From Elusimicrobiota bacterium (GTDB taxonomy: Bacteria > Elusimicrobiota > Elusimicrobia > UBA1565 > UBA9628), in assembly GCA_016212855.1 (NCBI GenBank), contig JACRDP010000003.1, positions 29,283 through 93,282 of the forward strand: a stretch of DNA of 64,000 bases. Direction: 5' to 3'. The position numbers were made by a program, and so were the translations under genes. Of the stretch, positions 29 to 62,626 are shown piece after piece (position 1 is the first letter of the stretch; each line of letters begins with the position of its first letter). The notes under the pieces are model-generated. The model searched no databases, was not told where the DNA came from, and worked only from the letters and a program-made list of their open reading frames with translations.

Positions 29-3000
29 GTGTCCGCACCCATCGCCATCGCGAACGCCGCTTCCCCGATCTCGTCCTTGTCCGCCGCCGCCGCGCAACTG
101 ACTCCGGCTCTCACCGCCACCGATCTGTCCGCTCCGGCCAAATCCGACGGCGCGCTCGACCGCCTGTCCTCGCTGTTCGACGGCCTGATCGCGCGCAAGC
201 CCGCGCAGGACGCCGTGAACGCGGGCGAACGCGACGACGCGCCCCGCGGCTCGCAGTTGGGCCGGCCCGAACACCGGCTCATGCGCGTGCAGGTGACGCT
301 CGCCGATCCCGGTTCGCACGAGGCGCTCGTGGCGGTGCTGGAGAAAATGAGCGGCGACCTCGGCTTCAGAGTCGACAATTCCGCCGAAACGTCCCGTATG
401 CCCGGGCTCGTGACCGTGCGCGGCGCCGTCCCCGTCTCGCGCCTGTTCGCGCTCCAGCAGGCGCCCGGCGTCGTGGACGTCGCCGCGGTCCGCTCGGTTG
501 AAACGGCGCCGAAGGCACCGTCGAGCGAAAATCTCCTGCGCGCCGGCGTCCGCAAGCTCGCGCTCGCGAACCCGATGTACGCGTCCCTCGCCGTCCTCCC
601 GCTGGCCGCCCTCGCCGGCGTCGCCTTCATGGGTCCCGTGATGGGCGGCATCGCCCTCGGCGGCGCGGCCGCCGTCCTCAAGCCGTGGATGCTCGGCACG
701 GTTCTCGGCATGACGTCGATGTCATACCTGTCCTTCCTGTTCAACTGGATCCCGGTCAAAATCCGCGCCGCCGCGACGTTCGCCGGCGCGGGCGGTCTCG
801 CCTGGCTCGCGTACGGCTTGATCCCCGGCGCCGCCGCGCTGTGGCTCGGCGCCAACCTGGCCGTGAGCTTCATCGCCGCGATGCGCGGCCTCCAGGTCCC
901 GGCGGCCGGCGACAAGGTCGGCAAGATCGTGTTCGCCGTCGAGCGCTCGGCGTTCGTCAACATCCTGGGCTATCAGGCTCTTCTTCCCATACTCCTGCTC
1001 GCCGGCATGCTGCCGCTGGCCTACGGCATTCTCGCCGTCTCGTCGGTCCTCGCCGTCGCCCTGCTGATCAAGACGGCGGCGCCGAAGGCCGTAGTCCTTC
1101 CCATGGCCCCCATCGCGCTCGGCTTGCTGCCGGGCGGAACGCCTTCCGTCCCGGAAGGACCGAAGCCCGGGAAGAAAGCGGCGGCGCCCAAAAAGCCCGC
1201 GCACGAGCCGTTCGTGCCCGCGACGCGCGTCGTCGCCGCGCTCGAAAAGCTGCTTGAGACGAACCCCGCCGAGGCGCTCAAGGCCGCCGCCGCCGCGATC
1301 GTCAACGAAAAGGAGCGCCGCTCCGAAGTGAAGATCGGCGCCCAGCGCATCCTCGACGCCCTGCCGATCGAGCAGACCTTGCCGCATTACCTCGAGCTGC
1401 TCAAGCTCGTCGCCCGCCCCGGCCTGCAGACGAACAAGGACGTCAACATCGATCCGTGGTGGTATCTCCAGCGCACCGCGCTCAAGCGCCTGACGCGCGA
1501 GGCCGCCGCGCTCAAGCCCGGCACGCCCGAGCTGGTCGACGCGCTGAAGGAATCGTACAAGGATCGCAACGCCTCGGTGCGTCTCGCCGCGGCCGAGACC
1601 TTGACCGCGCTCGGCGTCGTGCCGGGACCCGAGGCGACGTACGAAGTCGTCCGCGCCGAACCCGAGACGACGATGCAGCCCGCGCCCGTCCTGAACCGGC
1701 CCAATCCGGCGAAGCCCAAGAGCAATAAATTCGTGCGCTGGATCGCGATCGGTCTGCTCGCGGCCTCGCTCGGCTGGCTCGTGTTGGGAAATCACAATCC
1801 CGCGTCTCCCCCGCCTTCGACTCCGCCCGCGATCACGCAGACGATCAAGCCCGACTCGGCGGCGATACCGGCCGCGAAAGCGTCCGAGACCGACTCGATC
1901 AAGGTCGACCCGAAGGACGCGGCCCTCGAGCAGATCGCGAAGGACACCAAGCGCACCGCCGACGCGGCCGAGCGCTCCGCCAAGGCCGCCGAGCAGATGG
2001 CCAAGCCCAAGGGCTCCTTCCTGAGCACGTTGTTCTGGACGCTCGCCCCGATCATCCTCATGGTTTGGCTGTTCCGCAAGTTCATGGGCGGAGGCGGCGC
2101 GGCCGGCGGCATCCAGATGAAGCCGAAGATGGACCTCGAGAAGCCGACGACGCGCTTCGACGACGTGGCCGGCATCGACGAGAGCATGGTCGAGGTCCAG
2201 GAGATCATCGACTTCCTGCGCGACCCGTCCCGCTTTAAAAAACTCGGCGCGCGCATGCCCAAGGGTATCCTGATGGAAGGCCCCCCCGGCACCGGCAAGA
2301 CCTTGCTCGCCCGCGCGCTCGCCGGCGAGACCGACGCGACCTTCATCTCGATCTCGGGCTCCGACTTCGTCGAACTCTATGTCGGCATGGGCGCGCGCCG
2401 CGTGCGCGAGCTGTTCGAGACCGCGCGCGCTCACTCGCCGGCTATCATCTTCATCGACGAAATCGACGCGGTCGGCAAACAGCGCGGCGGCGGGGGCCCC
2501 GGCAACGGCGGCAACGACGAGCGCGAGCAGACGATCAACCAGATCCTCAAGGAGATGGACGGCTTCGACAACTCCTCGGGCGTGCTCGTCGTCGCGGCGA
2601 CCAACCAGGCGTCCACGCTCGACACGGCGCTGACCCGCCCCGGACGCTTCGACCGCAAGATTCACGTGGGCCTGCCCGAGGCCATGGGCCGCGAGGCGAT
2701 CTTGGCGCTTCACGCCAAAAAGGCGCGCCTCGGTCCCGACGTGGACCTGCGCCTCATCGCGCGCCGCTCCGCGGGCCTCTCCGGCGCCTTCCTCGAGAAC
2801 GTGATCAACGAGGCGGCCCTATTGGCCGCCCGGCGCGGCGGTCATTTCATCAACGCCGCCGACATCGACGAGGCCGTCGACCGCGCGACGATCGGCGGCA
2901 AGCGCTCTTTGCGCCTGTCCGAAGAGCTGAAGCTGCGCATCGGACGCCACGAGGTCGGCCACGTGGCCGCCAACCTGCTCAACGAAAACGCCAAGGTGCG

Positions 3001-3487
3001 CGTGCCCGTCAACAAGGTGACGATCATCCCGCACGGCTCGGGCGCGCTCGGCTTCGCCGAGTCCGGCTCCGAAGAGGGCGACAAGTACCTCTACACGCGC
3101 GCCGAGCTCGAGGCCCGACTCGATACCGCGCTCGGCGGCCTCGTCGCCGAGAAGATCTACTACGGCGAGTGGTCCACCGGCCCGGGCTCGGACCTCGAGC
3201 AGGCGACGCGCGTGGCGCGGGCGATGGTGCAGCAGCTCGGCATGAGCGAGGAGATGGGACTCGCGCAGACCGCGCCGAACCAGTACGGGCAGAGCCCGTT
3301 CGGAAGCGAGACCGACGCGAGAGCTCTCGTCGAGATCAACAAGCTGCTCGCGGCGTCGAAGGCGCGCGTCGAGAAGCGCCTGGCCGAGAACAAGGACAAG
3401 TTCGAGGCGCTCGTCGCCGCGCTGGTCGAGAAGGAGACGCTCTCCTCCGACGAGATCATGGCGATCCTGCACCCGAAACCGAAATAG
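29..3487 (+). CDS. ftsH: FtsH-type AAA+ zinc metalloprotease with ~550-aa N-terminal extension. The ORF is open to the window edge, so the 5' end may lie upstream.
   Basis: The C-terminal ~600 aa carry Walker A GPPGTGKT, Walker B IIFIDEID, the TRPGRFDR second region of homology and the HEVGH zinc site. Two TM helices (aa ~570-590 and ~665-685) precede the AAA module as in FtsH. The upstream part adds a multi-TM block (aa ~180-365), a Pro/Lys linker and a HEAT-like segment ([16 protein letters not shown]). Confidence 0.85.
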
Positions 3488-3811: not shown

Positions 3812-3906
3812 GGGCCGATTTTAGCAAACGCGCCGCCATGCGTCCTAGGGCGGAACGGGTCCTTGTGCCCTGTCGGCGATGCTGGAAAATCGGCATCCTT
3901 ATGGTC

Positions 3907-18900: not shown

Positions 18901-20019
18901 ATGAAGCCTTTCCTCCTGCTTGCGCTGTTCGCCGTCGCCGCCAAAGCCGAGGAGCCGGCGCCATCCTCCCGGCCTCCAGCGCCGCGCGCGTTCGGCGCCC
19001 TTCAAGCTTCCAACCTGCTGAACCCCAACATCAGCGTCATCGGCTGGTTTCAGGGCGAGGCGGGCCGGCGGCACTCCGATCCCGGCGTCAATCTCCCCCC
19101 CGCGCTGGACATGAAAGAGGCCGAGCTCGGCTTTCAGTCCATCGTCGATCCCTACGCTCGCGCCGACTTTTTCATCTCGGTCGGGCGCGAGGGCGTCGAA
19201 CTGGAGGAGGGCTACATAGACTGGTTCCACCTCCCCCACGACCTGGCTCTGAAAGTCGGCAAGTTCCGCGCCGATTTCGGCAAGTTCAACCGCACCCACC
19301 CTCCCGAGACGGCGTTCGCCGACCGGCCATTGGTCCACGAGCGCTTCTTGGGAAACGAAGGCCTCTCGGGAGCGGGCGCCGACCTGTCCTGGCAGGTGCC
19401 CAATCCCTGGGTGCTCGTGACCGTCGACGGCGAAATCATCAACACGCCCACCGCCGAGGAAAGCCCTTTTTTCGACCGGGCCCGGAGACGCGATCTGCTG
19501 TATGTCGCCCACGCCAGCGGCTATTACGACCTGAGCGACGCCGTCAACATGACTCTCGGCGGCAGCTACGCCTACGGCGCGGCGGGTCAGGACTACAACG
19601 CGGTCGCCCTCTCGTCGCGCACCTTATCGGCGCAGCTCGGCGGCCTCGACCTGACTTTGCGCTGGAGGAATCCGCGGCGCAGCATCTACCGCTCGGGTTT
19701 CTGGCAGACCGAGGTCCTGTGGGGCAAGCGCGGCGCCGCCGGCGGCTCGTCCGTCGGCACCGCCGGGATGTTCAGCCACGTCGAATATCAGTTCGCGCGG
19801 CGCTGGCGCGCCGGCGCGCGCTACGATTACACCCAGATGCCGGCCGACCGGTCCCAGCACGAAGAAGCGGGGCTCGCCTACCTGACCTTTCAGCCCAGCG
19901 AATTCACCTCCATCAGCCTTCAAGGCCGCCAGGCGCGCCGCTTCGACGGGGCGAAAGAGACGCTCGGATTTCTTAAGATCACCTTCAACATCGGTCCGCA
20001 TGGATCGCATCCGTTCTAG
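18901..20019 (+). CDS. Outer-membrane beta-barrel protein (putative zinc-regulated porin or receptor)
   Basis: Signal peptide MKPFLLLALFAVAAKA, alternating beta-strand-like pattern and a C-terminal Phe (GSHPF). First gene of the Zur-controlled operon. Confidence 0.55.
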   Translation: MKPFLLLALFAVAAKAEEPAPSSRPPAPRAFGALQASNLLNPNISVIGWFQGEAGRRHSDPGVNLPPALDMKEAELGFQSIVDPYARADFFISVGREGVELEEGYIDWFHLPHDLALKVGKFRADFGKFNRTHPPETAFADRPLVHERFLGNEGLSGAGADLSWQVPNPWVLVTVDGEIINTPTAEESPFFDRARRRDLLYVAHASGYYDLSDAVNMTLGGSYAYGAAGQDYNAVALSSRTLSAQLGGLDLTLRWRNPRRSIYRSGFWQTEVLWGKRGAAGGSSVGTAGMFSHVEYQFARRWRAGARYDYTQMPADRSQHEEAGLAYLTFQPSEFTSISLQGRQARRFDGAKETLGFLKITFNIGPHGSHPF

Positions 20020-22501: not shown

Positions 22502-24303
22502 AGAACGGCGAACAGAAAGGCCGTCGCGGTCAGGACGCTGATCGCGAAGCCGGCTAAAGCCGCGATCGAGCCGAACTCGAACTCGACTGTGTGCTCGCCG
22601 GGCGGCACCGCGACCGACGGGAAAGCCTCGGCGAACATTCCCGTTTCTACTTTTACTCCGTCGACACGCGCCTCCCAGCCGGGATAATTCATTTCCGAGA
22701 GAATCAACGCGCCCCCGCCGGCCGTGACGACGCGCGCCGACGCGAAACCCGGACGAAGCGACGTCTCGCCGACTTTCCCCGCGCCGTCGAAGAATATCCG
22801 CTCGCGGGCCGTCGTCCGGCGGGAGACCTCGATCGTCTCCCGCGTCACGCGCAAGGCTCCGCGCTTCAGGCCGACGACGCGGTCCACCCCCGCCCAATCC
22901 GCCCTGCCGGGAGAGTTCATGCGGCTCAGATAATCGTTCGCCCGGCGAAGCCGCAAGGTCTGATACGAGCTCGCTTCCCGCACGCCGAACGCCGCACCGA
23001 AAGACGGCGCGAGAAAATCGCGCATGAGGAGATAATCCTCCTCGGTCTCGAGGGTGCCCTTCTCCCACGCACGCCGCAGCTCGTCGGTGTGATAGATCCG
23101 TCCCCTCCCGGCGCCCGCCAAAGCCGGCGGATCGCTCAGGAATTCCGGACGCGACCAGGCCGCGCGCGGGACCGCCAGGAACAGGAGCAAGTCCGCGAGC
23201 AGCAGACCGGCCGCCGCCCATTGAAGGGACGGCCGCAGCCGGGCGACGCCGGACGCGGCGAGCAAAGCCGCGGCCGCCGTCGCCAGGAGCAGCCAATTCG
23301 CCGGAAAGCGGAAGAGATGAAGAAAGCCCATCGCGTCGAACCCGGGCAGATGGCCGCCGAGGCTGAGCAGCATCGCGCCCAGCGCCCCCGCCGCCAGCAG
23401 GCGCTCGGTCCGCCCCCCGCGCCACGCCGCCCAGCCCGCGAGCGCCCAGGCGACGAGCCCGACGTAAAAACAGACGATAGCGGGATCTCCGGCCATAAAC
23501 GGCGACCAGCGAATCCATTGCGGGGCCAGCGCCTCCTTGAGAAGCTGGCCTGGCGCCAGGGAGAATTGACGCGCCATGGCGGGATCGAGGATCACGGCGC
23601 GGCCGGCGCCGCGCAGAAGCTCGATAAACGGGATCCACTGCGCCGCGGCCAGGCCCAGCGCCACGATTCCGCCCTGGACGAGGCACTTCAATCCTTTTCG
23701 TCCCTGAGCGCAGGCGACGGCGGACACGGCGACGACGCTCAGGAGCGAGAACGGCGGAAACCCCGCCAGCCATTGCAGCGCGACGCAGGCGCCGAGCCCC
23801 AAGGGGGAGAGCTCGTACTGGAAATACAAAATCGCGGGGAGCCACGCCGCAGCCGCGAAATGATTCGGGAACGTGACTCGCGCCGTGAAGAACCCGTTGA
23901 ACGCCGCGAGCGCCGCCGCCGCCGCCGCCGCGGGCGCGGACTTTTTCATCCGCCACGCCAGGCCCCCCATGAACGCCGCCGCCAGCAAAGTGTGAAACAC
24001 GACCCACACGCGAAGAAAGCCGGTGAAATCGGGGAGGAGGACGAAGAGCCGGGCCGGAGGATATAAGGACATGCTCTGCGGATCGGCTAGAAAGGGCTCG
24101 CCCATGTCCCGGAAGGGATTCCAGACGGGCAGCAGCCGGTCCGCGCCGAGCGTGCGCAGCAGGCTCCAGTTCGGATAGGAGTACGCGATCATGTTTCCGT
24201 CGAGGGGAACCAGGCCGCCGAGGAGCAGCGGGCGCCACGCGAGGCACAGCGCGAGCACGATTCCCGCCATGACGGCCGCGGCGACGGAACGGCGGAGTTT
24301 CAC
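22498..24303 (-). CDS. Large polytopic membrane protein (YfhO-like or glycosyltransferase-like, uncertain)
   Basis: 601 aa with more than 10 predicted TM helices, then a C-terminal soluble domain and a final TM helix. GTG start preceded by TGgTATCGT-N6. Confidence 0.5.
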   Translation of the reverse strand: MKLRRSVAAAVMAGIVLALCLAWRPLLLGGLVPLDGNMIAYSYPNWSLLRTLGADRLLPVWNPFRDMGEPFLADPQSMSLYPPARLFVLLPDFTGFLRVWVVFHTLLAAAFMGGLAWRMKKSAPAAAAAAALAAFNGFFTARVTFPNHFAAAAWLPAILYFQYELSPLGLGACVALQWLAGFPPFSLLSVVAVSAVACAQGRKGLKCLVQGGIVALGLAAAQWIPFIELLRGAGRAVILDPAMARQFSLAPGQLLKEALAPQWIRWSPFMAGDPAIVCFYVGLVAWALAGWAAWRGGRTERLLAAGALGAMLLSLGGHLPGFDAMGFLHLFRFPANWLLLATAAAALLAASGVARLRPSLQWAAAGLLLADLLLFLAVPRAAWSRPEFLSDPPALAGAGRGRIYHTDELRRAWEKGTLETEEDYLLMRDFLAPSFGAAFGVREASSYQTLRLRRANDYLSRMNSPGRADWAGVDRVVGLKRGALRVTRETIEVSRRTTARERIFFDGAGKVGETSLRPGFASARVVTAGGGALILSEMNYPGWEARVDGVKVETGMFAEAFPSVAVPPGEHTVEFEFGSIAALAGFAISVLTATAFLFAVL

Positions 24304-28945: not shown

Positions 28946-29218
28946 ATGAACGACATCACGATCGAACCCCGTTCGCGAGTCACGCTCGCGGATAAAGAAA
29001 TTCTGAAGCCCGTTTTCGGCTCCCTCTGGCTTCCCTACGCGATCCTTCTCCTCACGGTCGCCGCCTTCTACTGGAACGTGCCCGCGAAGCTCGCCGCGCG
29101 GCTGAAGAGCAAGCCGGTTCCCCAGGCCTCGCTCGTCCCGACCTCGGTGAACTACCCCATGCCGCCCCAGTCGCAGTGGTTCACGAACCCGGACGACGCC
29201 CTCGTCGCCCACCGCTAG
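28946..29218 (+). CDS. Small hypothetical membrane protein
   Basis: 90-aa ORF with one TM helix (WLPYAILLLTVAAFYW). Confidence 0.4.
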   Translation: MNDITIEPRSRVTLADKEILKPVFGSLWLPYAILLLTVAAFYWNVPAKLAARLKSKPVPQASLVPTSVNYPMPPQSQWFTNPDDALVAHR

Positions 29219-30688: not shown

Positions 30689-30704
30689 TGGCCGCTTCGT
30701 TGCT
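30689..30704 (+). promoter_or_regulatory. Sigma-54-type -24/-12 promoter TGGCCGCTTCGTTGCT
   Basis: GG and GC are separated as in TGGCAC-N5-TTGC. The -12 C (30703) is 13 nt before ATG 30716. Confidence 0.6.
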
Positions 30705-30715
30705 CGCGAGCATGC

Positions 30716-31282
30716 ATGGACCGGAAATACGCGCCGTTTCTGGCCTTTTTCGCGATCGCGCTCACGGCCGGTTGCGCCTTGTTCCGCTGGTCGGGCTACC
30801 GCGAGCGCGATCCCATGAAAGTCGGAGAGTGGTCCGCCGCCGAGCTCGCCTTCTCGACGAGCCCGGCCCGGGCGCGCCCGGAACTCCCGCCCCCCCCGTT
30901 GGGCGATATTCCCAATACGCTGTACTACTCCGATCTCGGTCCCGACACCGTCGACGTGTCCGGCTACCCGACCCAGCAGAAATACAACTACGAAATCTTC
31001 CGCCGGGAGTGCTCGGCGTGCCACACCTTGGCCCGCGCGGTGAATTCGCCGACGCAAAGCCGCGCGTACTGGCGCTTTCACATGGCGCGCATGAGCCTGC
31101 ATTCCCGCGTCAATCGCGCCGGCCCGCTGCCGGCAGCCGAGCTCGGCTTCATCCTCGATTTTCTCGAGTACGACTCGAAGGTCCGGAAGTCGGACGACAA
31201 GAAGGCCTTCGAGGAGCGGACCGAGGAGCTGAAGCGGCGATTCGATCCGATTCTGAAAAAACTGGTGGATAAGCCGAGGTAG
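30716..31282 (+). CDS. Lipoprotein with a single CxxCH haem-c motif (paralog 1)
   Basis: Lipobox LTAGC, CSACH motif, conserved YSDLGPDTVD and DFLEYDS blocks shared with the next gene. Confidence 0.6.
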   Translation: MDRKYAPFLAFFAIALTAGCALFRWSGYRERDPMKVGEWSAAELAFSTSPARARPELPPPPLGDIPNTLYYSDLGPDTVDVSGYPTQQKYNYEIFRRECSACHTLARAVNSPTQSRAYWRFHMARMSLHSRVNRAGPLPAAELGFILDFLEYDSKVRKSDDKKAFEERTEELKRRFDPILKKLVDKPR

Positions 31283-32176: not shown

Positions 32177-32192
32177 CGCAACGGAACATCCA
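32177..32192 (-). promoter_or_regulatory. Sigma-54-type promoter TGGATGTTCCGTTGCG (ytxH)
   Basis: Minus-strand motif with correct GG/GC spacing. Predicted +1 near 32166, giving a 32-nt leader with a Shine-Dalgarno sequence. Confidence 0.55.
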
Positions 32193-33751: not shown

Positions 33752-34219
33752 CTAATGCCCGTCCGCGCGCTTGACGACCCGGCTGGAGTCGAGCCACGCG
33801 CGCGCGCCGCCCTCCAGGCTGTACACGTTCATGTAGCCCATGCGCTGGAGGCTCTCCGCCGCCAACACGGACCGCGCACCCGCTCCACAGTAGAGGATGA
33901 TCTCCGATTCGGCGTCGGAGACCGTCTTCTCGATGTCCCGCTCGAGGATTCCGCGGCCGAGATGAACGGCACCCGGAAGACCTCCGCCGGCCCATTCCGA
34001 ATCCTCGCGCACGTCGATCAGTATGAAGCCGCGTTCACCCGCGTCGATCCGCGCCCGCAGAGCACCGGCCGAGATCGAACGCGTGCGCTGCCGCGCCTCC
34101 GAGACCAGCTTTTCGAAACGGAAGGCCGCAGGCGCCGCCCTCGAGGCGAGGGCGACCGCCAACAGGCCCACGGCCGCGACCGCCGCGACCACCGCGGCGA
34201 TCGCGTGTTTCCTGGTCAT
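33752..34219 (-). CDS. Rhodanese-domain sulfurtransferase with an N-terminal anchor
   Basis: Active-site loop YCGAGARS and IDVREDSEW. The start overlaps the ppsA stop. Confidence 0.8.
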   Translation of the reverse strand: MTRKHAIAAVVAAVAAVGLLAVALASRAAPAAFRFEKLVSEARQRTRSISAGALRARIDAGERGFILIDVREDSEWAGGGLPGAVHLGRGILERDIEKTVSDAESEIILYCGAGARSVLAAESLQRMGYMNVYSLEGGARAWLDSSRVVKRADGH

Positions 34220-36657
34220 ACGAGCGGCGGTCGCAACGATCCGGCCGCCGCGCCGCGCTTCTTCTCCATCTCGAGCACCGCCAAAGTCGTCTTGAGGACC
34301 GAATCCGGATTGAGCGAAAGGCTGTCGATCCCCAGGCCGACGAGAAACCCCGCGAACTCGGGATAGTCGCTCGGAGCCTGGCCGCAGATGCCGATCTTGC
34401 GGCCCGCGGCCTTGGCCGTGCGGATCACCTGCGCGATCATCGTCTTGACCGCCTCGTCGCGCTCGTCGAAGAGCGGCGCGACGATCTCGGAGTCGCGGTC
34501 GACGCCGAGAATCAGCTGCGTCAGGTCGTTCGAGCCGATCGAGAAGCCGTCGAAGATCTCGGCGAACTTCTCGGCCAGGATCACGTTGCTCGGGATCTCG
34601 CACATCACGTACACCTCGAGGCCGTCCTCGCCCCGGACGAGCCCGTGCAGTTCCATCTCGGCCTGCACGCGCCGCCCCTCTTCGACCGTGCGGCAGAACG
34701 GGATCATCAGCTTGAGGTTCTTGAGGCCCATCTCCTCGCGGACTTTGCGCACCGCCCGGCATTCCAGCGCGAAGCCCTCCCGGTAGCGGGGGTGATAGTA
34801 GCGCGAGGCGCCCCGGAAGCCGATCATCGGGTTCTCCTCGCGCGGCTCGAAGGCCGCGCCGCCGAGGAGGTTGGCGTACTCGTTGGTCTTGAAGTCGCTG
34901 AGTCGGAGGATCACGTCCTTCGGGTGGAACGCGGCCGCGATCATCGCCACGCCCTCCGCGAGCTTGTCGACGAAATAGCGCGGCTTGTCCGTCCAGCCCG
35001 CGGTCAGGCGCGCGATCTCGCGTCGCGCGTCGGCGCCCTGGACGCGCTCGGGGTGGATCAGGGCCAGGGGGTGGATCTTGACGAAGTTCGAGACGATGAA
35101 CTCCTCGCGCGCCAGGCCCACCCCGGAGTTCGGGATCAGCGAGAGGCCGAACGCCTCGCGGGGATCGGCGACGTTGAGCATGATCTTGGTTTCGGGCCGC
35201 TCCAGGCCCTTCAGGTCGACCCGCTCCACGTCGAACGCCAGACGTCCCGCGTAGACCACGCCGAGCTCGCCCCCGGCGCACGAGACCGTGACCTCCCATC
35301 CGTCGCGAAGCGCGTCCGTCCCCGTCTCCGTTCCCACGACGGCGGGCAAACCGAGCTCGCGGCTGACGATGGCCGCATGGCAGGTGCGCCCGCCGCGGTT
35401 GGTGACGATCGCGGACGCCTTTCTCATGATCGGCTCCCAGTCCGGGTCGGTCTTGTCCGTGACGAGCACCTCGCCGTCTTGGAACTCGCTCAGTCGCCCG
35501 ACGTCGCGGATGACCCGCACCCGGCCGATTCCGATCCGCCCGCCGACGCTGTGACCCGAGGCGAGAATCTTGCCGCGCTCCTTGAGGCGATAGGTCTCCA
35601 TCACGTCCGCCAGCCGCCGCGACTGCACCGTCTCCGGCCGGGCCTGGACGATGAACAGGCGGCCGCTCAGCCCGTCCTTAGCCCACTCGATATCCATGGG
35701 GCAGGGCTTGCCGGCCTTGGCGCCGTAGTGGTCCTCGATCACGCAGGCCCAGCGGGCCAAAGTCAAGATCTCCTCGTCGGTGATGGCGAAGCGCGCCCGC
35801 TCCGCCGCGGAGACGGGAACGTTCGACGTCCTTTTGGTCCCGCCCTCGTCATAAACGATCCTAAACTCCTTGCCGCCCACGGTCTTTTGAAGAATCGGCT
35901 TGAAGCCGTCCTTCAACGCGGGCTTGAAGACGACGTACTCGTCCGGGTTCACCGCGCCCTGGACGATGCTCTCGCCGAGGCCGTACGCGGCGCTGATGAG
36001 GACCGCCTCGCGGAAGCCGGTTTCCGTGTCGAGCGTGAACATGATGCCGGAGGCGGCCAGGTCCGAACGCACCATCCGCTGGACGCCGACGGAAAGCGCG
36101 ATGCGGCTTTCATCCAGGTTCTTGTCCGCGCGGTAGGCGATCGAGCGGTCGGTGAAGAGCGACGCGAAGCAGCGCCGGCACGTGTCGAGCAGCGCGGCGC
36201 GGCCCCGGACGTGCAGGAACGTCTCCTGCTGTCCGGCGAAGCTCGCCTCGGGAAGGTCCTCGGCCGTGGCGCTGCTGCGCACGGCCACGTCGGCGTCCTC
36301 GCCCGCGCCCAGACGGGCGTAGGCCCCGAGGATCGCCGCCTCGAGTTCCGCGGGGAGCGGCGCGGTCAACACGGCCTGGCGAAGCTCATGGCCGCGCCGG
36401 TGCAACTCCTCGGTGTCGCGCGCGTCCAAGCCCGTCAGCGCCCGCGTGATGAGCGCGCGCAGGCCGGAGCGCTCGATGAACAGGCGGTAGGACTCCGCCG
36501 TGATCGCGAAGCCGTCGGGCACCGGCACGCCTTGCGCGGAAAGCCCGCGGTACATCTCTCCGAGAGAGGCGTTCTTGCCGCCCACCGAGGGAACGTCCTC
36601 GATGCCGATCTCCTCGAACCGCTTGATGAGCTGAACCGCCCGCGCGATAGTCGCCAT
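34216..36657 (-). CDS. ppsA: Phosphoenolpyruvate synthase (pyruvate, water dikinase)
   Basis: 813 aa with N-terminal VGGKNASLGEM, the phosphohistidine region GGRTCHAAIVSRELG and a PEP-utilising C-domain. Confidence 0.92.
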   Translation of the reverse strand: MATIARAVQLIKRFEEIGIEDVPSVGGKNASLGEMYRGLSAQGVPVPDGFAITAESYRLFIERSGLRALITRALTGLDARDTEELHRRGHELRQAVLTAPLPAELEAAILGAYARLGAGEDADVAVRSSATAEDLPEASFAGQQETFLHVRGRAALLDTCRRCFASLFTDRSIAYRADKNLDESRIALSVGVQRMVRSDLAASGIMFTLDTETGFREAVLISAAYGLGESIVQGAVNPDEYVVFKPALKDGFKPILQKTVGGKEFRIVYDEGGTKRTSNVPVSAAERARFAITDEEILTLARWACVIEDHYGAKAGKPCPMDIEWAKDGLSGRLFIVQARPETVQSRRLADVMETYRLKERGKILASGHSVGGRIGIGRVRVIRDVGRLSEFQDGEVLVTDKTDPDWEPIMRKASAIVTNRGGRTCHAAIVSRELGLPAVVGTETGTDALRDGWEVTVSCAGGELGVVYAGRLAFDVERVDLKGLERPETKIMLNVADPREAFGLSLIPNSGVGLAREEFIVSNFVKIHPLALIHPERVQGADARREIARLTAGWTDKPRYFVDKLAEGVAMIAAAFHPKDVILRLSDFKTNEYANLLGGAAFEPREENPMIGFRGASRYYHPRYREGFALECRAVRKVREEMGLKNLKLMIPFCRTVEEGRRVQAEMELHGLVRGEDGLEVYVMCEIPSNVILAEKFAEIFDGFSIGSNDLTQLILGVDRDSEIVAPLFDERDEAVKTMIAQVIRTAKAAGRKIGICGQAPSDYPEFAGFLVGLGIDSLSLNPDSVLKTTLAVLEMEKKRGAAAGSLRPPLV
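34232..34247 (-). promoter_or_regulatory. Sigma-54-type promoter CGGCCGGATCGTTGCG (rhodanese), embedded in the ppsA 3' end
   Basis: The -12 C (34233) is 14 nt before ATG 34219. Confidence 0.5.
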
Positions 36658-36669
36658 GACCCGAGCCCC

Positions 36670-36685
36670 GGCAACGTTACTTCCA
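36670..36685 (-). promoter_or_regulatory. Sigma-54-type promoter TGGAAGTAACGTTGCC (ppsA)
   Basis: The -12 C (36671) is 14 nt before ATG 36657. No Shine-Dalgarno sequence. Confidence 0.6.
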
Positions 36686-36687
36686 GA

Positions 36688-36996
36688 CTACGGCCGCAGA
36701 TCCACGAAGAATTCGTGCGGCTCGCCGGTGATCCTCTTCCCGTCCGGGGTCTCCATGGACACGATGATCTCGTGTTCACCGTTTTCATAACCCGACCAAT
36801 CGAACCACCAGAAGCCCACGGCCGGCCGGCAGGCCATCCATTTTCCTTGGTCTATGGAAATGCCCACGCGTTTGACGCCTTCCGGGGCGTACACGCGGAC
36901 GGTGTATTGCGCGGACGTGATCACTTCGTTCTGCAGCGGATGATTGACCGCCAGCATGGTCTTGTTCGCGCTCTTACGGTTCAATATCGTCGCCAT
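36688..36996 (-). CDS. Hypothetical 102-aa protein (possibly a beta-sandwich fold)
   Basis: ATG preceded by GAAGGAGGAG. Locally lower GC. I recognise no family. Confidence 0.5.
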   Translation of the reverse strand: MATILNRKSANKTMLAVNHPLQNEVITSAQYTVRVYAPEGVKRVGISIDQGKWMACRPAVGFWWFDWSGYENGEHEIIVSMETPDGKRITGEPHEFFVDLRP

Positions 36997-37052
36997 GATA
37001 TCTCCTCCTTCGCTATCTCCGGCCGGAAAGTCTCGCCTCTTACGGCGCCGCA

Positions 37053-37068
37053 CGCAACGCGACGGCCA
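37053..37068 (-). promoter_or_regulatory. Sigma-54-type promoter TGGCCGTCGCGTTGCG
   Basis: Predicted +1 near 37042, giving a 46-nt leader with a Shine-Dalgarno sequence before ATG 36996. Confidence 0.6.
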
Positions 37069-37091
37069 CGCTCACGGCCCCAGCACGGCTC

Positions 37092-37107
37092 TGGCGCATA
37101 CGTTGCG
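37092..37107 (+). promoter_or_regulatory. Sigma-54-type promoter TGGCGCATACGTTGCG
   Basis: The -12 C (37106) is 14 nt before ATG 37120. Confidence 0.6.
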
Positions 37108-37119
37108 GCGCGTCGAATC

Positions 37120-37320
37120 ATGACATTCTCGCCGACCGAGCCGAGCCGCGATAAGGACGCGGAAATCGCCCGCTTGCTCGGTGAACTGGCCGACCTGACC
37201 GGGGAGGAGGAGGCCCTCGCGGCCTATCGCCGCGAGGCGGAGGCTTTCGAGCCCGCCGTCTCCACCGAAAGCATCGCGCGCGCCCTTCTCGCGCTTGAAA
37301 AGGAGGCGGGGCCGCCATGA
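37120..37320 (+). CDS. Small acidic hypothetical protein (66 aa), coupled to the HD-GYP gene
   Basis: ATG sits at the leaderless position of the sigma-54-type promoter. ATGA overlap with the next gene. Confidence 0.4.
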   Translation: MTFSPTEPSRDKDAEIARLLGELADLTGEEEALAAYRREAEAFEPAVSTESIARALLALEKEAGPP

Positions 37321-38753
37321 ACGCCGCCGAGACCGCCGCATCGGGCATAGGCGCCGATCTGGTGCGGCGGTTGTTCGTCCTGCTCAAGGCCGCGACCGTC
37401 TATGGGCCGAACAACGAGGGTTACCGCACGCACTCCGCCGAGGCCCGCGGGACCTTGACCGCGGCGCTCTCCCGGGCGGACCCGGTCCGAGTCGAGGTGC
37501 GCGAGGACCGCCTCTTTTTCAACGGCGCGCCGATCACTTTGCCGCCCGGGGAAGCCGGCGTTCGCTTTCTCTGCGCCGAACTGCGGCGCTGCGGCGCCGG
37601 CGGCCTGGAGTTTCGCGGGGCCCGCGCGGCGCTGGAACTCGACGCGTTCGTCTTCGCCTTCGTCAGCGGCGGCGCGCGGCGGGAGCGCTCGCTGAGTGAC
37701 ACGGCCCGGCTGCTGCGCGACGCGGGCGTGAACGCGATCACGCCGCTGGAGCCGGCGGGCGAGGACGAGGGAGCATGCGAACGGGCGCGGACGCCGGAGC
37801 CGGAATTCGGGGCCGACGCCGCGCGCCGGGCGTTCAGCCGGGCCGTCGATACGGTCGAGGAGGTCATGGCCCGCACGCGCGCAGGGCAGGACGCGGACCT
37901 CGGCGAGGCCAAGGTCGCGGCCGCGGAACTGGCCGAGCAGGTCGTCGCGGATCCGCAAGCGCTCTTCGAATTGTCGATCCTGCAGCGTTTCGACGAATAC
38001 ACGTACGCGCATTGCGTCAACGTCAGCATCTACTCCATCGCCATCGGCGACCGCCTCGGCCTGGGCACGGCGCGCCTCGCCGAGCTCGGCTTCGGCGCGC
38101 TGTTTCACGATTTGGGCAAGGCTCAGCTGCCGCGAGAGCTCATCGACAAGCCCGACGAATTCACCGAGGACGATTGGCGACTCATGCGCCGGCATCCCGC
38201 GCTCGGAGCCCGGGCTCTGCTGGCCCTGCGCCGGCCTCTCGACGCGCAGCTGGCGCGCGCGATTTCGATCGCCTTCGAGCATCACCTCGGCCTCGACGGC
38301 TCGGGCTATCCGAAGCTGACGCCGCCCCGGCGCCAGGAGCTGTTTTCCCGCATCTGCGCCGTGGCCGACGCGTTCGACGCCATGACCTCGGGCCGGGTGT
38401 ACGCCAAGCGCGCGATGAGCCCCGATGAAGCGCTGCGCCGCATGGTCCAGCGCGCGGGCACCGCCTTCGATCCCCTCCTGCTGCGCGTCTTCATCAACAT
38501 CGCCGGAGTCTTCCCCATCGCAACCGCCGTGCGCCTCGACACGGGAGAGCGCGCCGTGGTCCGCCGCAACGGCGACGATCTGCTCCGGCCCGACGTCGTC
38601 GTGCTCGCCGACGACGGCCGGGCGCGGGCGAAGTCGTCGCGGCGCGCGATTCAACGCACGCTGGACCCGGAGGAGAACGGCATCGACGCGCGGGAGGTCC
38701 TGCGCAGGGCCGCGAGCGCCTCGTCCTCGGTGACGCTCGAAAAATCGCGGTAG
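37317..38753 (+). CDS. HD-GYP domain protein (putative c-di-GMP phosphodiesterase) with an uncharacterised N-domain
   Basis: HCVNVS, FHDLGK and HHLGLDGSGYP motifs. Confidence 0.8.
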   Translation: MNAAETAASGIGADLVRRLFVLLKAATVYGPNNEGYRTHSAEARGTLTAALSRADPVRVEVREDRLFFNGAPITLPPGEAGVRFLCAELRRCGAGGLEFRGARAALELDAFVFAFVSGGARRERSLSDTARLLRDAGVNAITPLEPAGEDEGACERARTPEPEFGADAARRAFSRAVDTVEEVMARTRAGQDADLGEAKVAAAELAEQVVADPQALFELSILQRFDEYTYAHCVNVSIYSIAIGDRLGLGTARLAELGFGALFHDLGKAQLPRELIDKPDEFTEDDWRLMRRHPALGARALLALRRPLDAQLARAISIAFEHHLGLDGSGYPKLTPPRRQELFSRICAVADAFDAMTSGRVYAKRAMSPDEALRRMVQRAGTAFDPLLLRVFINIAGVFPIATAVRLDTGERAVVRRNGDDLLRPDVVVLADDGRARAKSSRRAIQRTLDPEENGIDAREVLRRAASASSSVTLEKSR

Positions 38754-39344: not shown

Positions 39345-39360
39345 CGCAACGAAAACACCA
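39345..39360 (-). promoter_or_regulatory. Sigma-54-type promoter TGGTGTTTTCGTTGCG
   Basis: Predicted +1 near 39334, giving a 15-nt leader with GGAGG. Confidence 0.55.
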
Positions 39361-39374
39361 CGCCCGCGTCACGT

Positions 39375-39390
39375 TGGCCGAATGGTTGCA
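39375..39390 (+). promoter_or_regulatory. Sigma-54-type promoter TGGCCGAATGGTTGCA (pilT operon)
   Basis: Near-consensus motif. The -12 C (39389) is 14 nt before GTG 39403. Confidence 0.65.
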
Positions 39391-44975: not shown

Positions 44976-45318
44976 ACGCCCAGGCGCCGCACCCAACCGT
45001 CCGCCGACCAGAGAAAGCGCGAGACCTTTCCCTCCGCGGGCCGCCGGCGCGACAACTCCAGCGCCAGCGATATCGCCGCCAGCCGACGATCCCGGTACAT
45101 GGCTCCCCCCGCCTTCTCTCCGCGGTGCAACGCTACGGCTCGCGGCCGTCTCGTTGCGTCATCATGAGCAGGAGGCCGGGAGAGCCCGTGACCTCCTCCG
45201 GGTAAAGGCGAGACCGGACGCGCGAAAGCGCGGCGATCGGCCCGCCTCCCGGATGGCGAGGGGCGCAAAGAGTTGGAGCGAACGAGGACCGGTCGAGGCC
45301 GGCCCTCGTTCGTCGCTT

Positions 45319-45816
45319 TCAGGCCGGCACGGTGCGCGCGCGACGGCCGAGCTCGCGCAACAGACCCGCCGGAAGGCGGGCGCGCAGCTCCGGGAACACG
45401 ACGTTCTCCTCGTAGACCATATGCGCCTCCAGCTCCTCGCACAGGCGGGAGAGAACGGTGCGCAGGCGGTACACGTGCTCGCCGTCGCCGCTGGCGGCGA
45501 CGGCGCCGAAGAGCTTCGTCATCTCCATGACGGCGCGGTGTCCTTCCTCGATGGCCGCGGACAACGCGGGGTCCATCCCGGCTTGGCGCAGCACCCGCGT
45601 CAAATACGCGTCCTCCATGGCCTCGTGAGCCTTGAACTCCGTGAAGAAGCGGTCCAGCGCGCGCGCGAACAGCTTGCGGTCCGCCGTCGCGCGATCATCC
45701 CACCCGATCCCGCTGGGGCGGTCGATCAGGACGGTCAGAAACGCGAGCGTGCCGCGGAGCTTTCCGTGGCCTTCGAGCAGGCGGTCGATGATATCCATGT
45801 GCCTCCGGACGGGCAT
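45319..45816 (-). CDS. Hemerythrin-like (HHE cation-binding) domain protein
   Basis: Spaced H/E pattern (HGKL..., FKAHEAMED, IEEGHRAV, LEAHMVYEE). The start was chosen at the ATG that coincides with the predicted sigma-54 +1. Longer starts (45864, 46011) overlap the divergent promoter. Confidence 0.6.
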   Translation of the reverse strand: MPVRRHMDIIDRLLEGHGKLRGTLAFLTVLIDRPSGIGWDDRATADRKLFARALDRFFTEFKAHEAMEDAYLTRVLRQAGMDPALSAAIEEGHRAVMEMTKLFGAVAASGDGEHVYRLRTVLSRLCEELEAHMVYEENVVFPELRARLPAGLLRELGRRARTVPA

Positions 45817-45826
45817 CGGGACGGGG

Positions 45827-45842
45827 CGCAACGCTTCGTCCA
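45827..45842 (-). promoter_or_regulatory. Sigma-54-type promoter TGGACGAAGCGTTGCG (hemerythrin)
   Basis: The -12 C (45828) is 12 nt before ATG 45816. Confidence 0.5.
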
Positions 45843-45852
45843 ACGCGACGAT

Positions 45853-45868
45853 TGGCCGGTTCATTGCA
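45853..45868 (+). promoter_or_regulatory. Sigma-54-type promoter TGGCCGGTTCATTGCA (PAS-GGDEF)
   Basis: Near-consensus motif. The -12 C (45867) is 14 nt before GTG 45881. Confidence 0.65.
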
Positions 45869-45880
45869 CACCCGCAGGGC

Positions 45881-46921
45881 GTGAGCCAGGCGGATTTTCC
45901 GGCGCTGTCCATCTCTGCGTGGCAGGTCATCCAGGCCATGCGCGACGGCGTCGTGCTCACCGACCCGCGCGGCTCGATCATGGCCGTCAACGACGTCTTC
46001 TGCGCCGTCACCGGCTACGCGCGGGACGAAGTCATGGGACGAAACCCCCGCCTCCTCCATTCGGGAAGGCACGATCACGCTTTCTACTGCCGCCTGTGGT
46101 CCGACGTCCTGAAAACCGGCGTCTGGCAGGGCGAGATATGGAACCGGCGGAAAAACGGCGAGATCTACCCGGAATGGCTCACGATCAGCTCGATCAAAGA
46201 CGCGTGGGGACACACCCGCTGCTATCTCGGGGTTTTCCGCGACATCACGAGCCCGAAGCTCGATGAAGAACGGCTCAAGCATCTGGCGCAGTACGACGCT
46301 CTCACGAGCTTGCCCAATCGCCGCACCTTCACCGAACGGCTCAAGCGCGTCCTGGCGAACCGTCCGGCGCAGCATCGGCTCGGCATCCTCTTTCTCGACC
46401 TCGACCATTTCAAGGACATCAACGACCGGTGGAGCCACAGCGCGGGCGACGCGTTCCTGCAGGCGGTCGGCGCGCGCCTGCGCTCCTGCGTGCGGCGCAG
46501 CGACTACACGGCGCGCTGGGCGGGAGACGAGTTCGCCGTCCTGCTCCACCCCGTCGCCGGGCGCCGGGGCGCCGCGCGCGTCGCGGCGAAAATACTGCGC
46601 GCCCTGCGGCGGCCGTTCAGCGTTCTGGGCCGCCGGACCAAGATCTCCGCCAGCGTCGGCGTCTGCCTGTACAACGGCGAGGGCTCGGCGGAACGGCTGA
46701 TCGACCGGGCGGACCGGGCGATGTACGCGGTCAAGGAAAAGGGGCGCAACGACGTCGGCTTCTGGTCCTCGGCCGTTTCGTTGCGGCGTCGTTCGGCGAC
46801 CCCTCAGAGAGGGGCCGCCGCAAAGGACGTAAAGAAGGACCGGAACACGCCGCAGGCCCGGACAGGGATGGGGTCCATGAGACGGCGATCCGGAGTTCGT
46901 AAAGGGCCGAGCGGTTCGTAG
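45881..46921 (+). CDS. PAS-GGDEF diguanylate cyclase (motif reads AGDEF). The C-terminal ~55 codons run through the next promoter and leader.
   Basis: PAS region (VLTDPRGSIMAVNDVFCAVTGYARDEV) and GGDEF domain (LFLDLDHFKDINDRWSHSAGD, RWAGDEFAVLL, DRADRAMYAVKEKGRN). Alternative start ATG 45938. Confidence 0.85.
   Translation: MSQADFPALSISAWQVIQAMRDGVVLTDPRGSIMAVNDVFCAVTGYARDEVMGRNPRLLHSGRHDHAFYCRLWSDVLKTGVWQGEIWNRRKNGEIYPEWLTISSIKDAWGHTRCYLGVFRDITSPKLDEERLKHLAQYDALTSLPNRRTFTERLKRVLANRPAQHRLGILFLDLDHFKDINDRWSHSAGDAFLQAVGARLRSCVRRSDYTARWAGDEFAVLLHPVAGRRGAARVAAKILRALRRPFSVLGRRTKISASVGVCLYNGEGSAERLIDRADRAMYAVKEKGRNDVGFWSSAVSLRRRSATPQRGAAAKDVKKDRNTPQARTGMGSMRRRSGVRKGPSGS
46770..46785 (+). promoter_or_regulatory. 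Sigma-54-type promoter CGGCCGTTTCGTTGCG (leader copy 1)
   Basis: Correct GG/GC spacing. Predicted +1 near 46796, 156 nt before ATG 46952. Confidence 0.55.
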
Positions 46922-46951
46922 CCGCCCGGCCTTCCTTTTGGAGCGTTGGAC
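46796..46951 (+). promoter_or_regulatory. Structured 5' leader, copy 1 (candidate riboswitch or attenuator) ending in an intrinsic terminator
   Basis: Hairpin cccctc-aga-gagggg, then the conserved module 46848-46939 shared with 47697-47790 and 55348-55442. The terminator is gggccgagcgg/ccgcccggcc plus ttcctttt (46904-46939). Confidence 0.6.
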
Positions 46952-47606: not shown

Positions 47607-47790
47607 GCCGAGGGACAATCAGGGGTGAGCCCCCTCCCCGGCACCCAAGGCCCTCTCAGAGAGAGGGCGCCGGAAAGACGGCGTCGGACCGGAAACTGCC
47701 GCGGGCCCGGACAGGAACGGGGTCCTTGAGACGGCGATCCGGAGTGAGTAAAGGGCCGAGCGGTTCGTAGCCGCCCGGCCTTCCTTTTTT
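47607..47790 (+). promoter_or_regulatory. Structured leader, copy 2 (longest version) ending in an intrinsic terminator
   Basis: Extra hairpins agggg-tgag-cccct and ccctctc-aga-gagaggg, then the conserved module 47697-47790. The terminator stem at 47753-47782 is followed by a U-tract (tt cc tttttt). Confidence 0.6.
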
Positions 47791-47802
47791 CCCCGCCCCC
47801 CC

Positions 47803-47818
47803 CGGCCGAAACGTTGCG
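47803..47818 (+). promoter_or_regulatory. Sigma-54-type promoter CGGCCGAAACGTTGCG (methyltransferase)
   Basis: Located just 3' of the copy-2 terminator. The -12 C (47817) is 13 nt before GTG 47830. Confidence 0.55.
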
Positions 47819-53036: not shown

Positions 53037-53052
53037 GGCAACGATCCGGCCA
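53037..53052 (-). promoter_or_regulatory. Sigma-54-type promoter TGGCCGGATCGTTGCC (P-type ATPase)
   Basis: The -12 C (53038) is 13 nt before ATG 53025. The core is identical to the rhodanese promoter. Confidence 0.6.
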
Positions 53053-53085: not shown

Positions 53086-53101
53086 TGGCCGGGATGTTGC
53101 G
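53086..53101 (+). promoter_or_regulatory. Sigma-54-type promoter TGGCCGGGATGTTGCG (hsp20-ubiB)
   Basis: Predicted +1 near 53112, giving a 19-nt leader with GGGAGGGAGG before ATG 53131. Confidence 0.6.
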
Positions 53102-55320: not shown

Positions 55321-55336
55321 AGGCCGTATTGTTGCG
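55321..55336 (+). promoter_or_regulatory. Sigma-54-type promoter AGGCCGTATTGTTGCG (leader copy 3)
   Basis: Correct spacing. Predicted +1 near 55347. Confidence 0.5.
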
Positions 55337-55346
55337 ACATCGTTGG

Positions 55347-55481
55347 GCGCCGCAGGGCCCGGACAAGAGCCGGGCCCGTCAGTCGGCGATCCGGAGCGAC
55401 GCAAAGGGCCGAGCGGTTTCGCGACCGCCCGGCCTTCCTTTGCTCGCCGGCGCGGCCGGTCCGGTATCCAATGGGGGCGAA
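55347..55481 (+). promoter_or_regulatory. Structured leader, copy 3 (minimal version) with an intrinsic terminator
   Basis: Helix cgccg (55348-52) / cggcg (55384-88) encloses the hairpin gggcccgg-acaagag-ccgggccc. The tail tccgg is complementary to ccgga. The terminator is at 55406-55442. Confidence 0.6.
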
Positions 55482-57018: not shown

Positions 57019-57034
57019 CGCAACGAAACGGCCC
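57019..57034 (-). promoter_or_regulatory. Sigma-54-type promoter GGGCCGTTTCGTTGCG (USP)
   Basis: 15 of 16 nt are identical to the leader copy-1 promoter. Predicted +1 near 57008, giving a 26-nt leader. Confidence 0.55.
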
Positions 57035-57648: not shown

Positions 57649-57664
57649 TGGCCGGTCCGTTGCG
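57649..57664 (+). promoter_or_regulatory. Sigma-54-type promoter TGGCCGGTCCGTTGCG (clpB)
   Basis: The -12 C (57663) is 14 nt before ATG 57677. No Shine-Dalgarno sequence. Confidence 0.6.
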
Positions 57665-57676
57665 TGATATTGGGAC

Positions 57677-60223
<2,547 letters not shown>

Positions 60224-60258: not shown

Positions 60259-60345
60259 GGAAAGGTGACCGAGTGGTTGAAGGTAGCAGTCTCGAAAACT
60301 GCCAGGGATGCAAGTCCCTCGAGGGTTCGAATCCCTCCCTTTCCG
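60259..60345 (+). tRNA. tRNA-Ser (anticodon CGA)
   Basis: Acceptor stem ggaaagg/cctttcc, anticodon stem gcagt/actgc with loop cuCGAaa, a long variable arm and a T arm gaggg-ttcgaat-ccctc. 87 nt; CCA not encoded. Confidence 0.9.
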
Positions 60346-62552: not shown

Positions 62553-62626
62553 TGGAGCGGGCGAAGGGAATCGAACCCTCGTCTGATCCTTGGCAAGGAC
62601 CCGTTCTACCATTGAACCACGCCCGC
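62553..62626 (-). tRNA. tRNA-Gly (anticodon GCC), CCA encoded
   Basis: The reverse complement reads gcgggcg-tg-gttcaatggtagaac-gggtcc-ttGCCaa-ggatc...gagggttcgattccc-ttcgcccgc-t-cca. Confidence 0.9.

Follow-up and report, generated by a model that had tools for sequence, protein, structure and literature searches.

A conserved 15-nt motif that stands at a fixed distance in front of start codons lacking a Shine–Dalgarno (SD) sequence raises a simple question: is the motif a promoter, and does transcription from it begin on the start codon itself? The question arises from a 64,000-nt stretch of DNA (the window, meaning here the whole stretch analysed) from contig JACRDP010000003.1 of the Elusimicrobiota metagenome-assembled genome (MAG) GCA_016212855.1. 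It is posed most clearly by positions 34219–37122, where genes for a rhodanese-domain protein, phosphoenolpyruvate (PEP) synthase (ppsA) and a 66-aa open reading frame (ORF) each start 14 nt after the final C of such a motif. An initial annotation had read the motif as a sigma-54-type (−24/−12) promoter and its spacing as the mark of leaderless messenger RNAs. The best explanation, to which we give a probability of about 0.6, is that −24/−12-class promoters are served by a short sigma-54, a PAS histidine kinase and an activator carrying the sequence GAFTGA, and that the transcripts would be leaderless where the start codon falls on the transcription start site (TSS).

Motif anatomy and distance to start codons

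The motif has the consensus (T/C)GGCCG-N3-CGTTGC and is present in about 22 good copies in the window. Invariance of GG and TTGC in the 23 copies picked by pattern is a product of that selection; the independent test is the spacing between the two blocks. In the window and eight independent Elusimicrobiota loci from relatives, a spacer of 3 nt yields 47 matches, while each of the other spacers from 0 to 8 yields between 1 and 11. This rigid spacing sets the GG and GC doublets exactly 10 bp apart (GG-N10-GC), which is the geometry of sigma-54 promoters. There is no conservation upstream of TGG, and the motif is strictly co-directional with the downstream gene. A position weight matrix finds 20 matches of at least 14 bits in the window against about 1.6 in shuffled sequence, and 18 of them fall between 30 and 60 kb, in what amounts to a stress island; the left half of the window, with its pyrimidine, purine and zinc housekeeping genes, has almost no copies. 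Matches occur at a density of 1.74 per 10 kb across the eight related loci; the corresponding figure for 160 loci of other phyla is 0.23–0.25. Some loci that at first seemed rich in the motif, such as L067 of Mycobacterium, consist of PE-PGRS-like repeats, and scans of genome and metagenome contigs based on ppsA recovered only relatives of at most 71% identity, from the Planctomycetes–Verrucomicrobia–Chlamydiae (PVC) group, cyanobacteria and archaea, none with the motif.

Four copies lie in the region of interest. The first, CGGCCGGATCGTTGC (34233..34247, minus strand; 19.1 bits), is embedded in the non-conserved 3′ tail of ppsA, 14 nt from ATG 34219 of the rhodanese-domain gene (33752..34219, minus strand; 155 aa, PF00581, with a signal-peptide-like N-terminus). 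The second, TGGAAGTAACGTTGC (36671..36685, minus strand), is 14 nt from ATG 36657 of ppsA (34216..36657, minus strand; 813 aa), with no SD between them. The third, TGGCCGTCGCGTTGC (37054..37068, minus strand), is separated by 58 nt from ATG 36996 of a 102-aa ORF, whose leader contains AAGGAGG. Back to back with it stands TGGCGCATACGTTGC (37092..37106, plus strand), 14 nt from ATG 37120 of the 66-aa ORF, downstream of which lies an HD-domain gene (37317–38753, plus strand).

The same short distance recurs elsewhere in the window. On the plus strand it separates the copies at 30689..30703 from ATG 30716 (13 nt; a 188-aa membrane or secreted protein), 39375..39389 from GTG 39403 (14 nt; the pilT operon), 45853..45867 from GTG 45881 (14 nt; PAS-GGDEF), 47803..47817 from GTG 47830 (13 nt; a methyltransferase) and TGGCCGGTCCGTTGC at 57649..57663 from ATG 57677 of clpB (14 nt; 57677..60223, 848 aa). 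On the minus strand it separates 45828..45842 from ATG 45816 (12 nt; hemerythrin), 53038..53052 from ATG 53025 (13 nt; a P-type cation ATPase) and a weak copy of less than 12 bits, TGGCGGCGCGTTTGC (3824..3838), from ATG 3811 (13 nt; a 98-aa ORF). Every coordinate and distance given for these 11 start codons in the initial annotation was reproduced, and each codon is the first ATG or GTG after its motif and in frame with a coding-like ORF. Nine of the 16 scorable promoters in the window have a start at 12–14 nt, which, given a background of 0.034 in-frame ATG or GTG per codon, corresponds to a binomial P of 6e-10.

The remaining starts are set well back from the motif. The distances in this long class are 27, 31, 38, 44 and 58 nt, and most of its leaders hold a GGAGG-type SD: 32178..32192 (minus strand) precedes GTG 32134 of the YtxH gene by 44 nt with GGGAGGG, 39346..39360 (minus strand) precedes ATG 39319 of a phosphoribosyltransferase by 27 nt with GGAGG, 53086..53100 (plus strand) precedes ATG 53131 of Hsp20 by 31 nt with GGGAGGGAGG, and 57020..57034 (minus strand) precedes ATG 56982 of a tandem universal stress protein (USP) by 38 nt. 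The bimodality that had been proposed, with no SD at 12–14 nt and an SD in the longer leaders, is borne out by counts of SD cores of at least 4 nt: short-distance cases have one in 2 of 20 instances, long-distance cases in about 17 of 26.

The relatives repeat the pattern. Six of their 32 motif-to-start distances are 13–14 nt (P = 6.5e-4), five are 16–18 nt, none is 19–24 nt and the remainder are 25–72 nt. The empty zone is informative. If the TSS lies about 13 nt after the C, a spacing of 19–24 nt would produce leaders of 6–11 nt, too long for leaderless initiation and too short for an SD with its spacer, so that a gap is predicted at just these distances; were the TSS far upstream, none would be expected. 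The empty zone is thus consistent with a TSS about 13 nt after the C.

The gene clpB illustrates both arrangements, as it is preceded by the motif in every relative while its distance to the start varies. It is 14 nt in the window and in L164 (92% identity), neither with an SD, and 14 nt in L167 (75% identity, from a 3.1-Mb genome), with a weak SD consisting of an AAGG core only. It is 18 nt without an SD in L162 (92%), 31 nt with a weak SD in L171 (85%), and 32 and 54 nt, both with GGAGG, in L166 (86%) and L168 (82%). Other genes of the relatives with short spacing encode EAL (+14), PAC2 (+13), a 191-aa protein (+13), GGDEF (+14) and ATPase (+13) products. Leaderless geometry is frequent, occurring at about half of the copies in the window and at roughly a fifth to a third of those in relatives, and its description as the default output of −24/−12 promoters was overstated.

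A sigma-54 homologue and an adjacent activator in relatives

Which polymerase might read these sites is suggested by three of the relatives (L171, L172 and L173), in which a gene for a 355–360-aa protein with a Sigma54_DBD (DNA-binding domain) is divergently paired with genes for a PAS histidine kinase and a REC-AAA+ activator. The neighbours of this module encode CBS, YtxH, hemerythrin, USP, GGDEF and P-type ATPase proteins, and in L172 it shares a 119-kb contig with a clpB whose identity to that of the window is 92%. In relatives, copies of the motif also stand before the kinase gene and, at 40–43 nt, before the sigma gene itself. The short sigma-54 homologues (L172:7682–8761, L173:7774–8841 and L171:1–408, all on the minus strand; family P0249–P0395) score 50–54 bits for Sigma54_DBD, for which the cutoff is 22.8, and PF04552 is matched at 38–94 bits in all 12 family members tested. 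The homologue has an RpoN box (SRRTVNAVRH; SRRTVxxYR as the consensus of an 80-sequence alignment), a STVSR helix and an N-terminus (MKQTQKLAL...DPLFQKL) that resembles region I. An AlphaFold2 model built from the 80-sequence alignment has a predicted local distance difference test (pLDDT) score of 90.9 and a predicted template modelling (pTM) score of 0.88. Its top 29 matches in the PDB are all sigma-54 chains in RNA polymerase complexes, with a probability of 1.00 for nearly all, the alignments mostly spanning about 230–430 columns, gaps included.

An exhaustive HMMER search for the family of the homologue gave 190 representatives, nearly all of 346–400 aa, and those for which a source gives the organism are all from Elusimicrobia and annotated as ‘hypothetical protein’; the N-terminal 136 aa, when sought in a word-indexed database, returned fragments only. 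One MAG contig carries two paralogues of the family. Francke et al. recorded sigma-54 as absent from Elusimicrobium minutum (PMC3162934), and a preprint describes sigma-54-interaction-domain genes in MAGs of soil Elusimicrobiota; with a candidate sigma factor labelled as hypothetical in public MAGs of Elusimicrobia, surveys in which the phylum is scored as lacking sigma-54 may need revisiting.

The activators of L171, L172 and L173 (REC-Sigma54_activat) adjoin the sigma gene and contain GAFTGA or GSFTGA. GAFTGA is the loop by which such activators contact sigma-54. The L173 activator (L173:10001–11248) is without the HTH_8 DNA-binding domain, which its L171 and L172 orthologues keep. A subgroup of REC-AAA+ activators of about 400–424 aa, including hits P0213–P0237, is likewise without HTH_8.

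Together, the rigid GG-N10-GC spacing and a sigma-54 homologue with a GAFTGA enhancer-binding protein (EBP) beside the same gene families in close relatives uphold the reading of the motif as a sigma-54-type promoter. The sites are very probably −24/−12-class promoters; the assignment is well supported for the lineage, and we infer it for the window's own genome from the module of the relatives. The promoters would serve a stress or dormancy-like regulon comprising ClpB, Hsp20, the tandem USPs, PpsA, the P-type ATPase, phosphoribosyltransferases, YtxH, rhodanese, c-di-GMP enzymes and the PilT/PilB operon. They would most likely be read by RNA polymerase carrying the short (about 360 aa), divergent, phylum-specific sigma-54, and most likely be activated by the PAS histidine kinase and the REC-AAA+ (GAFTGA) activator. 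The sigma-54 holoenzyme starts transcription about 12–14 nt downstream of the −12 GC. Where a start codon occupies this position, the mRNA is predicted to begin at the AUG or GUG or 1–2 nt before it and to be translated without an SD, whereas copies with at least 25 nt of room would give ordinary SD leaders. The motif with its spacing and conservation, the two SD classes and the module of the relatives are observed; the identity of the sigma factor at the motif, the exact position of the TSS and leaderless translation are predictions from sequence. The combination of an unannotated, phylum-specific short sigma-54 with its own kinase and activator, a dormancy-like stress regulon, compact and in many cases back-to-back promoters at which no enhancer is detected, and transcription starting on the start codon is put forward more tentatively, at somewhat less than an even chance.

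Comparison with known systems shows where this proposal is conventional and where it departs from precedent. Canonical sigma-54 promoters (glnAp2, nifH and pspA; TGGCAC-N5-TTGCW) share the 10-bp separation of GG and GC, the TGG and TTGC blocks, the lack of −35 and −10 elements, GAFTGA AAA+ activators with a two-component sensor (here in the lineage) and an expected TSS 12–14 nt after the GC. They differ in the −24 block, which here is TGGCCG, and in the conserved CG that here precedes TTGC; a further difference is that about a third to a half of the promoters here abut the start codon, while described sigma-54 transcripts have SD-containing leaders. The RpoN family (TIGR02395; Pfam Sigma54_AID, CBD and DBD for the activator-interacting, core-binding and DNA-binding domains) resembles the homologue in its C-terminal DBD with helix–turn–helix and RpoN box SRRTV, region I-like N-terminus and predicted fold, but not in length. 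In the mycobacterial DosR dormancy regulon, a response regulator of the NarL type exerts control at sigma-70 promoters. This regulon is similar in gene content, with tandem USPs, Hsp20/alpha-crystallin, CBS proteins, phosphoribosyltransferases and a P-type cation ATPase, although control here would be exerted by sigma-54 and an AAA+ activator, and the binding motifs are unrelated. The −10-adjacent leaderless genes of Deinococcus–Thermus and Actinobacteria (PMC12340547) share a fixed distance from element to start, the lack of an SD and clade-wide occurrence; the fixed element here is instead a −24/−12 motif, which implies leaderless transcripts that depend on an activator.

Sigma-54 promoters and leaderless mRNAs are each known separately, the latter reviewed by Beck & Moll (as cited in PMC12754779), and the new element is their combination, of which we found no report. 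Full-text searches of one literature collection found no description that links leaderless mRNA to sigma-54 or RpoN, which is not proof of absence, and the TSS-mapping papers among the results treat the two separately; a paper on PexR of M. xanthus describes a leaderless transcript from a sigma-A promoter. If the proposal is correct, this would be the first regulon to couple activator-dependent sigma-54 transcription systematically to SD-independent (leaderless) translation. With the mRNA 5′ end placed on the start codon by an activator-gated promoter, leaderless expression would be shown not to depend on −10-type promoters, and the regulon would be a natural setting in which to ask if stress genes are favoured by leaderless translation.

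Competing explanations

Several observations weigh against this interpretation. The window holds no sigma-54 or EBP gene, the module being seen in relatives only. The homologue scores 58–62 bits against TIGR02395, for which the cutoff is 277, and does so over its C-terminus only; it gives no match to the Pfam core-binding (PF04963) or activator-interacting (PF00309) domains, and ten of ten family members tested match the DBD only. At −22/−21 the motif reads CG instead of the canonical AC, and exact TGGCA[CT]-N5-TTGC sites number zero in the window, although the TGG and TTGC parts do match. A k-mer search of positions −220 to −16 for a shared enhancer, or upstream activating sequence (UAS), which at sigma-54 promoters is expected some 80–150 bp upstream, returned only reverse copies of the motif itself. 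Many copies stand back to back, with 10–35 bp between −24 elements and 37–62 bp from C to C, which leaves no room for an intervening enhancer; these divergent pairs are 37054/37106, 39346/39389, 45828/45867 and 53038/53100 in the window, and L162 16117/16154 and 21343/21383, L164 8243/8291, L172 15043/15082 and L173 20947/20988 in relatives. Three of the motif-proximal starts (39403, 45881 and 47830) are GTG, a codon from which leaderless initiation is poor in E. coli, though it is used in mycobacteria. One further start probably belongs elsewhere (hemerythrin, see below), and the missing SD of the rhodanese gene could be due to translational coupling, since its ATG and the stop codon of ppsA overlap as ATGA. 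Finally, in GCA_965283875.1 the motif copies of clpB, the ATPase, the USP and the sigma gene are directly followed by TAnnnT.

The back-to-back layout is unlike that of canonical enhancer-dependent promoters. Speculatively, it would fit an activator that works from solution, as the L173 form without a DNA-binding domain might. H. pylori FlgR and Chlamydia CtcC are activators of this kind. The likeness extends to compact promoters without a detectable enhancer but not to the L171 and L172 orthologues, given their HTH_8.

We regard two alternatives as equally unlikely. In one, an ordinary transcription factor, either a repressor or an activator, binds the motif as an asymmetric operator, which lies shortly before the start codons inside 5′ untranslated regions that issue from unrecognized upstream promoters, the SD-less starts being served by coupling or by SD-independent initiation. 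Such an operator would need neither the EBP and sigma-54 genes that the window lacks nor the UAS that was not found in it, coupling could act at the ATGA overlaps at 34219 and 37317, and an SD is used by only about 46% of Elusimicrobia genes (PMC10783764). It sits poorly with a motif that always points towards its gene and whose two-block spacing matches GG-N10-GC, and a scan of 34100–37300 with the sigma-70 consensus found no promoter-like site. With the TSS placed elsewhere, the gap at 19–24 nt and the restriction of SDs to distances of at least 25 nt go unexplained. In relatives, moreover, the regulon lies together with genes for a dedicated sigma-54 homologue and a GAFTGA activator.

In the other alternative the sites are sigma-70-family promoters, the TG of TTGC serving as an extended −10 followed by a degenerate hexamer; transcripts would still be leaderless, with no dependence on sigma-54 or an activator. 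This gains from the fact that leaderless sigma-70-type promoters are common in the clade. Of 163 coding-like ORFs surveyed in the window and relatives, 14 have a TAnnnT hexamer that ends exactly 6 nt before the first start codon and 5 have one that ends exactly 7 nt before it (19/163 in all), against a background of about 1 per offset; TGn often stands in front of the hexamer. Examples in the window are a 304-aa gene at 16915 (TATAAT-gaagct-ATG), Fur at 18840 (minus strand) and its divergent neighbour at 18901, a YfhO-like gene at 24303 (minus strand), an ORF at 28946 and the ORF at 3811 (minus strand). TTGC joined to TAnnnT with the hexamer 6 nt before ATG occurs at window 3824 and at the four genes of GCA_965283875.1, where the sigma-54 and extended −10 readings overlap and predict the same TSS. 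At 3811 the sigma-70 reading is probably right, since the motif is weak and TTTGC-TAAAAT followed by 6 nt and ATG reads as an extended −10 leaderless promoter, not a −24/−12 one. As a general account it falters, because TAnnnT follows TTGC in only 1 of 22 window copies, the others being GC-rich there, and because the invariant GG at −25/−26 falls in what would be the sigma-70 spacer, with no conservation at −35. The survey also contradicts the idea that leaderless geometry is peculiar to −24/−12 promoters: the clade appears to use leaderless mRNAs widely, and its sigma-54-type promoters would be one form, with sigma-54, of a rule that holds throughout the clade and is not set by them.

How well the geometry identifies the true start differs from gene to gene. 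The ClpB start at 57677 is firmly predicted, as the ORF opens just 3 codons upstream of the ATG and the N-terminus MNPDRWT is common to orthologues of 848–855 aa. The PpsA start at 36657 is likewise firm, its N-terminus being co-linear with many homologues and aligning from residue 1, and so is the PAS-GGDEF start at 45881, where a 19-residue N-terminal extension is conserved at the protein level with L172, in which an ATG sits at +14. The public gene call for the L172 PAS-GGDEF gene (L172:15096–15153) is 19 codons short, at an internal ATG, and illustrates how SD-based gene callers misplace SD-less starts. The starts at 30716 and 37120 are plausible from promoter geometry, and the rhodanese start at 34219 is plausible too.

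In-frame alternatives lie close downstream of four starts. The initial annotation had held that the geometry settles the starts of pilT, PAS-GGDEF, hemerythrin, the ATPase and the methyltransferase; this stood for PAS-GGDEF and failed for hemerythrin, and the starts of pilT (39403; alternative ATG at +32), the methyltransferase (47830; +25) and the ATPase (53025; +22) stay ambiguous, with in-frame ATGs 9–18 nt downstream. The hemerythrin start at 45816 is probably wrong, the true start probably being the SD-led ATG 45798 (at +30, with a GGAGG SD), as judged from the L172 orthologue, which begins MDII at the matching ATG, has GGAGG as its SD and is preceded by a stop 4 codons earlier. The N-terminus of the L173 ATPase differs and is without the first ~24 residues, so that this protein fails as an arbiter between ATG 53025 and ATG 53016, yet it again starts 13 nt from the motif C. 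As predicted from promoter geometry, about 6–9 of the 11 genes in the initial list are credible candidates for leaderless expression.

That the 12–14 nt starts are mis-assigned, with true starts downstream and coincidental codons near the motif, could draw on hemerythrin, the three ambiguous genes and the internal ATG of the L172 call, but it is very improbable given the ClpB and PpsA alignments, the conserved GGDEF extension and a chance of about 0.034 per promoter (a single in-frame position in 12–14 nt) against 9/16 in the window and 6/32 in relatives. Two other readings are ruled out: a promoter of the extracytoplasmic function (ECF) type (GGAAC-N17-CGTT), since nothing is conserved upstream of TGG, and an RNA element, since the start distance of leadered copies varies over 25–72 nt and the orientation and spacing are those of a DNA promoter.

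Structured elements and gene content of the window

Three further copies of the motif, all on the plus strand, are followed by predicted RNA structure. The copy at 46770..46784 leads into a structured leader of about 160 nt that ends in a terminator-like hairpin before a radical-SAM gene (46946). The copy at 55321..55335 is followed by the same repeated hairpin element as that found after 46784. This element, of about 90 nt, occurs three times (46855–46939, 47700–47800 and 55355–55441, plus strand), contains two GC-rich hairpins and ends in the terminator-like TTCCTTTT; two of its copies lie about 70–120 nt downstream of the otherwise orphan motif copies at 46784 and 55335. It is absent from the relatives except for a 26-nt partial match in L171, and Rfam gave no known RNA in the structured leaders and no match to the element. 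The elements could be sigma-54-dependent small RNAs or attenuators. In the interval 45143–45260 (plus strand), an orphan motif copy at 45143..45157 faces the hemerythrin gene at its 3′ end in antisense orientation and is followed by a stable hairpin (z = −2.7); this may be an antisense or small RNA.

The stress island comprises genes for YtxH, two phosphoribosyltransferases, two tandem USPs, rhodanese, PpsA, an HD-domain protein, PilT, a REC-PilB protein, a histidine kinase, hemerythrin, PAS-GGDEF, OsmC, a P-type ATPase, Hsp20, an ABC1 kinase and ClpB. The ClpB of the window is 100% identical to an NCBI protein of an Elusimicrobia MAG, and its relatives at 70–92% identity number in the dozens; exact-sequence look-ups of PpsA, the GAF-HD protein and the ClpB record P0001 returned no record. 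Two tRNA genes (60259–60345, plus strand, and 62556–62626, minus strand) are the sole Rfam matches in the window. Near its left end, an FtsH-like AAA/M41 protease (29–3487, plus strand), whose gene continues beyond that end, has an unusually long N-terminal extension, of more than 740 aa, with a weak match to HEAT repeats.

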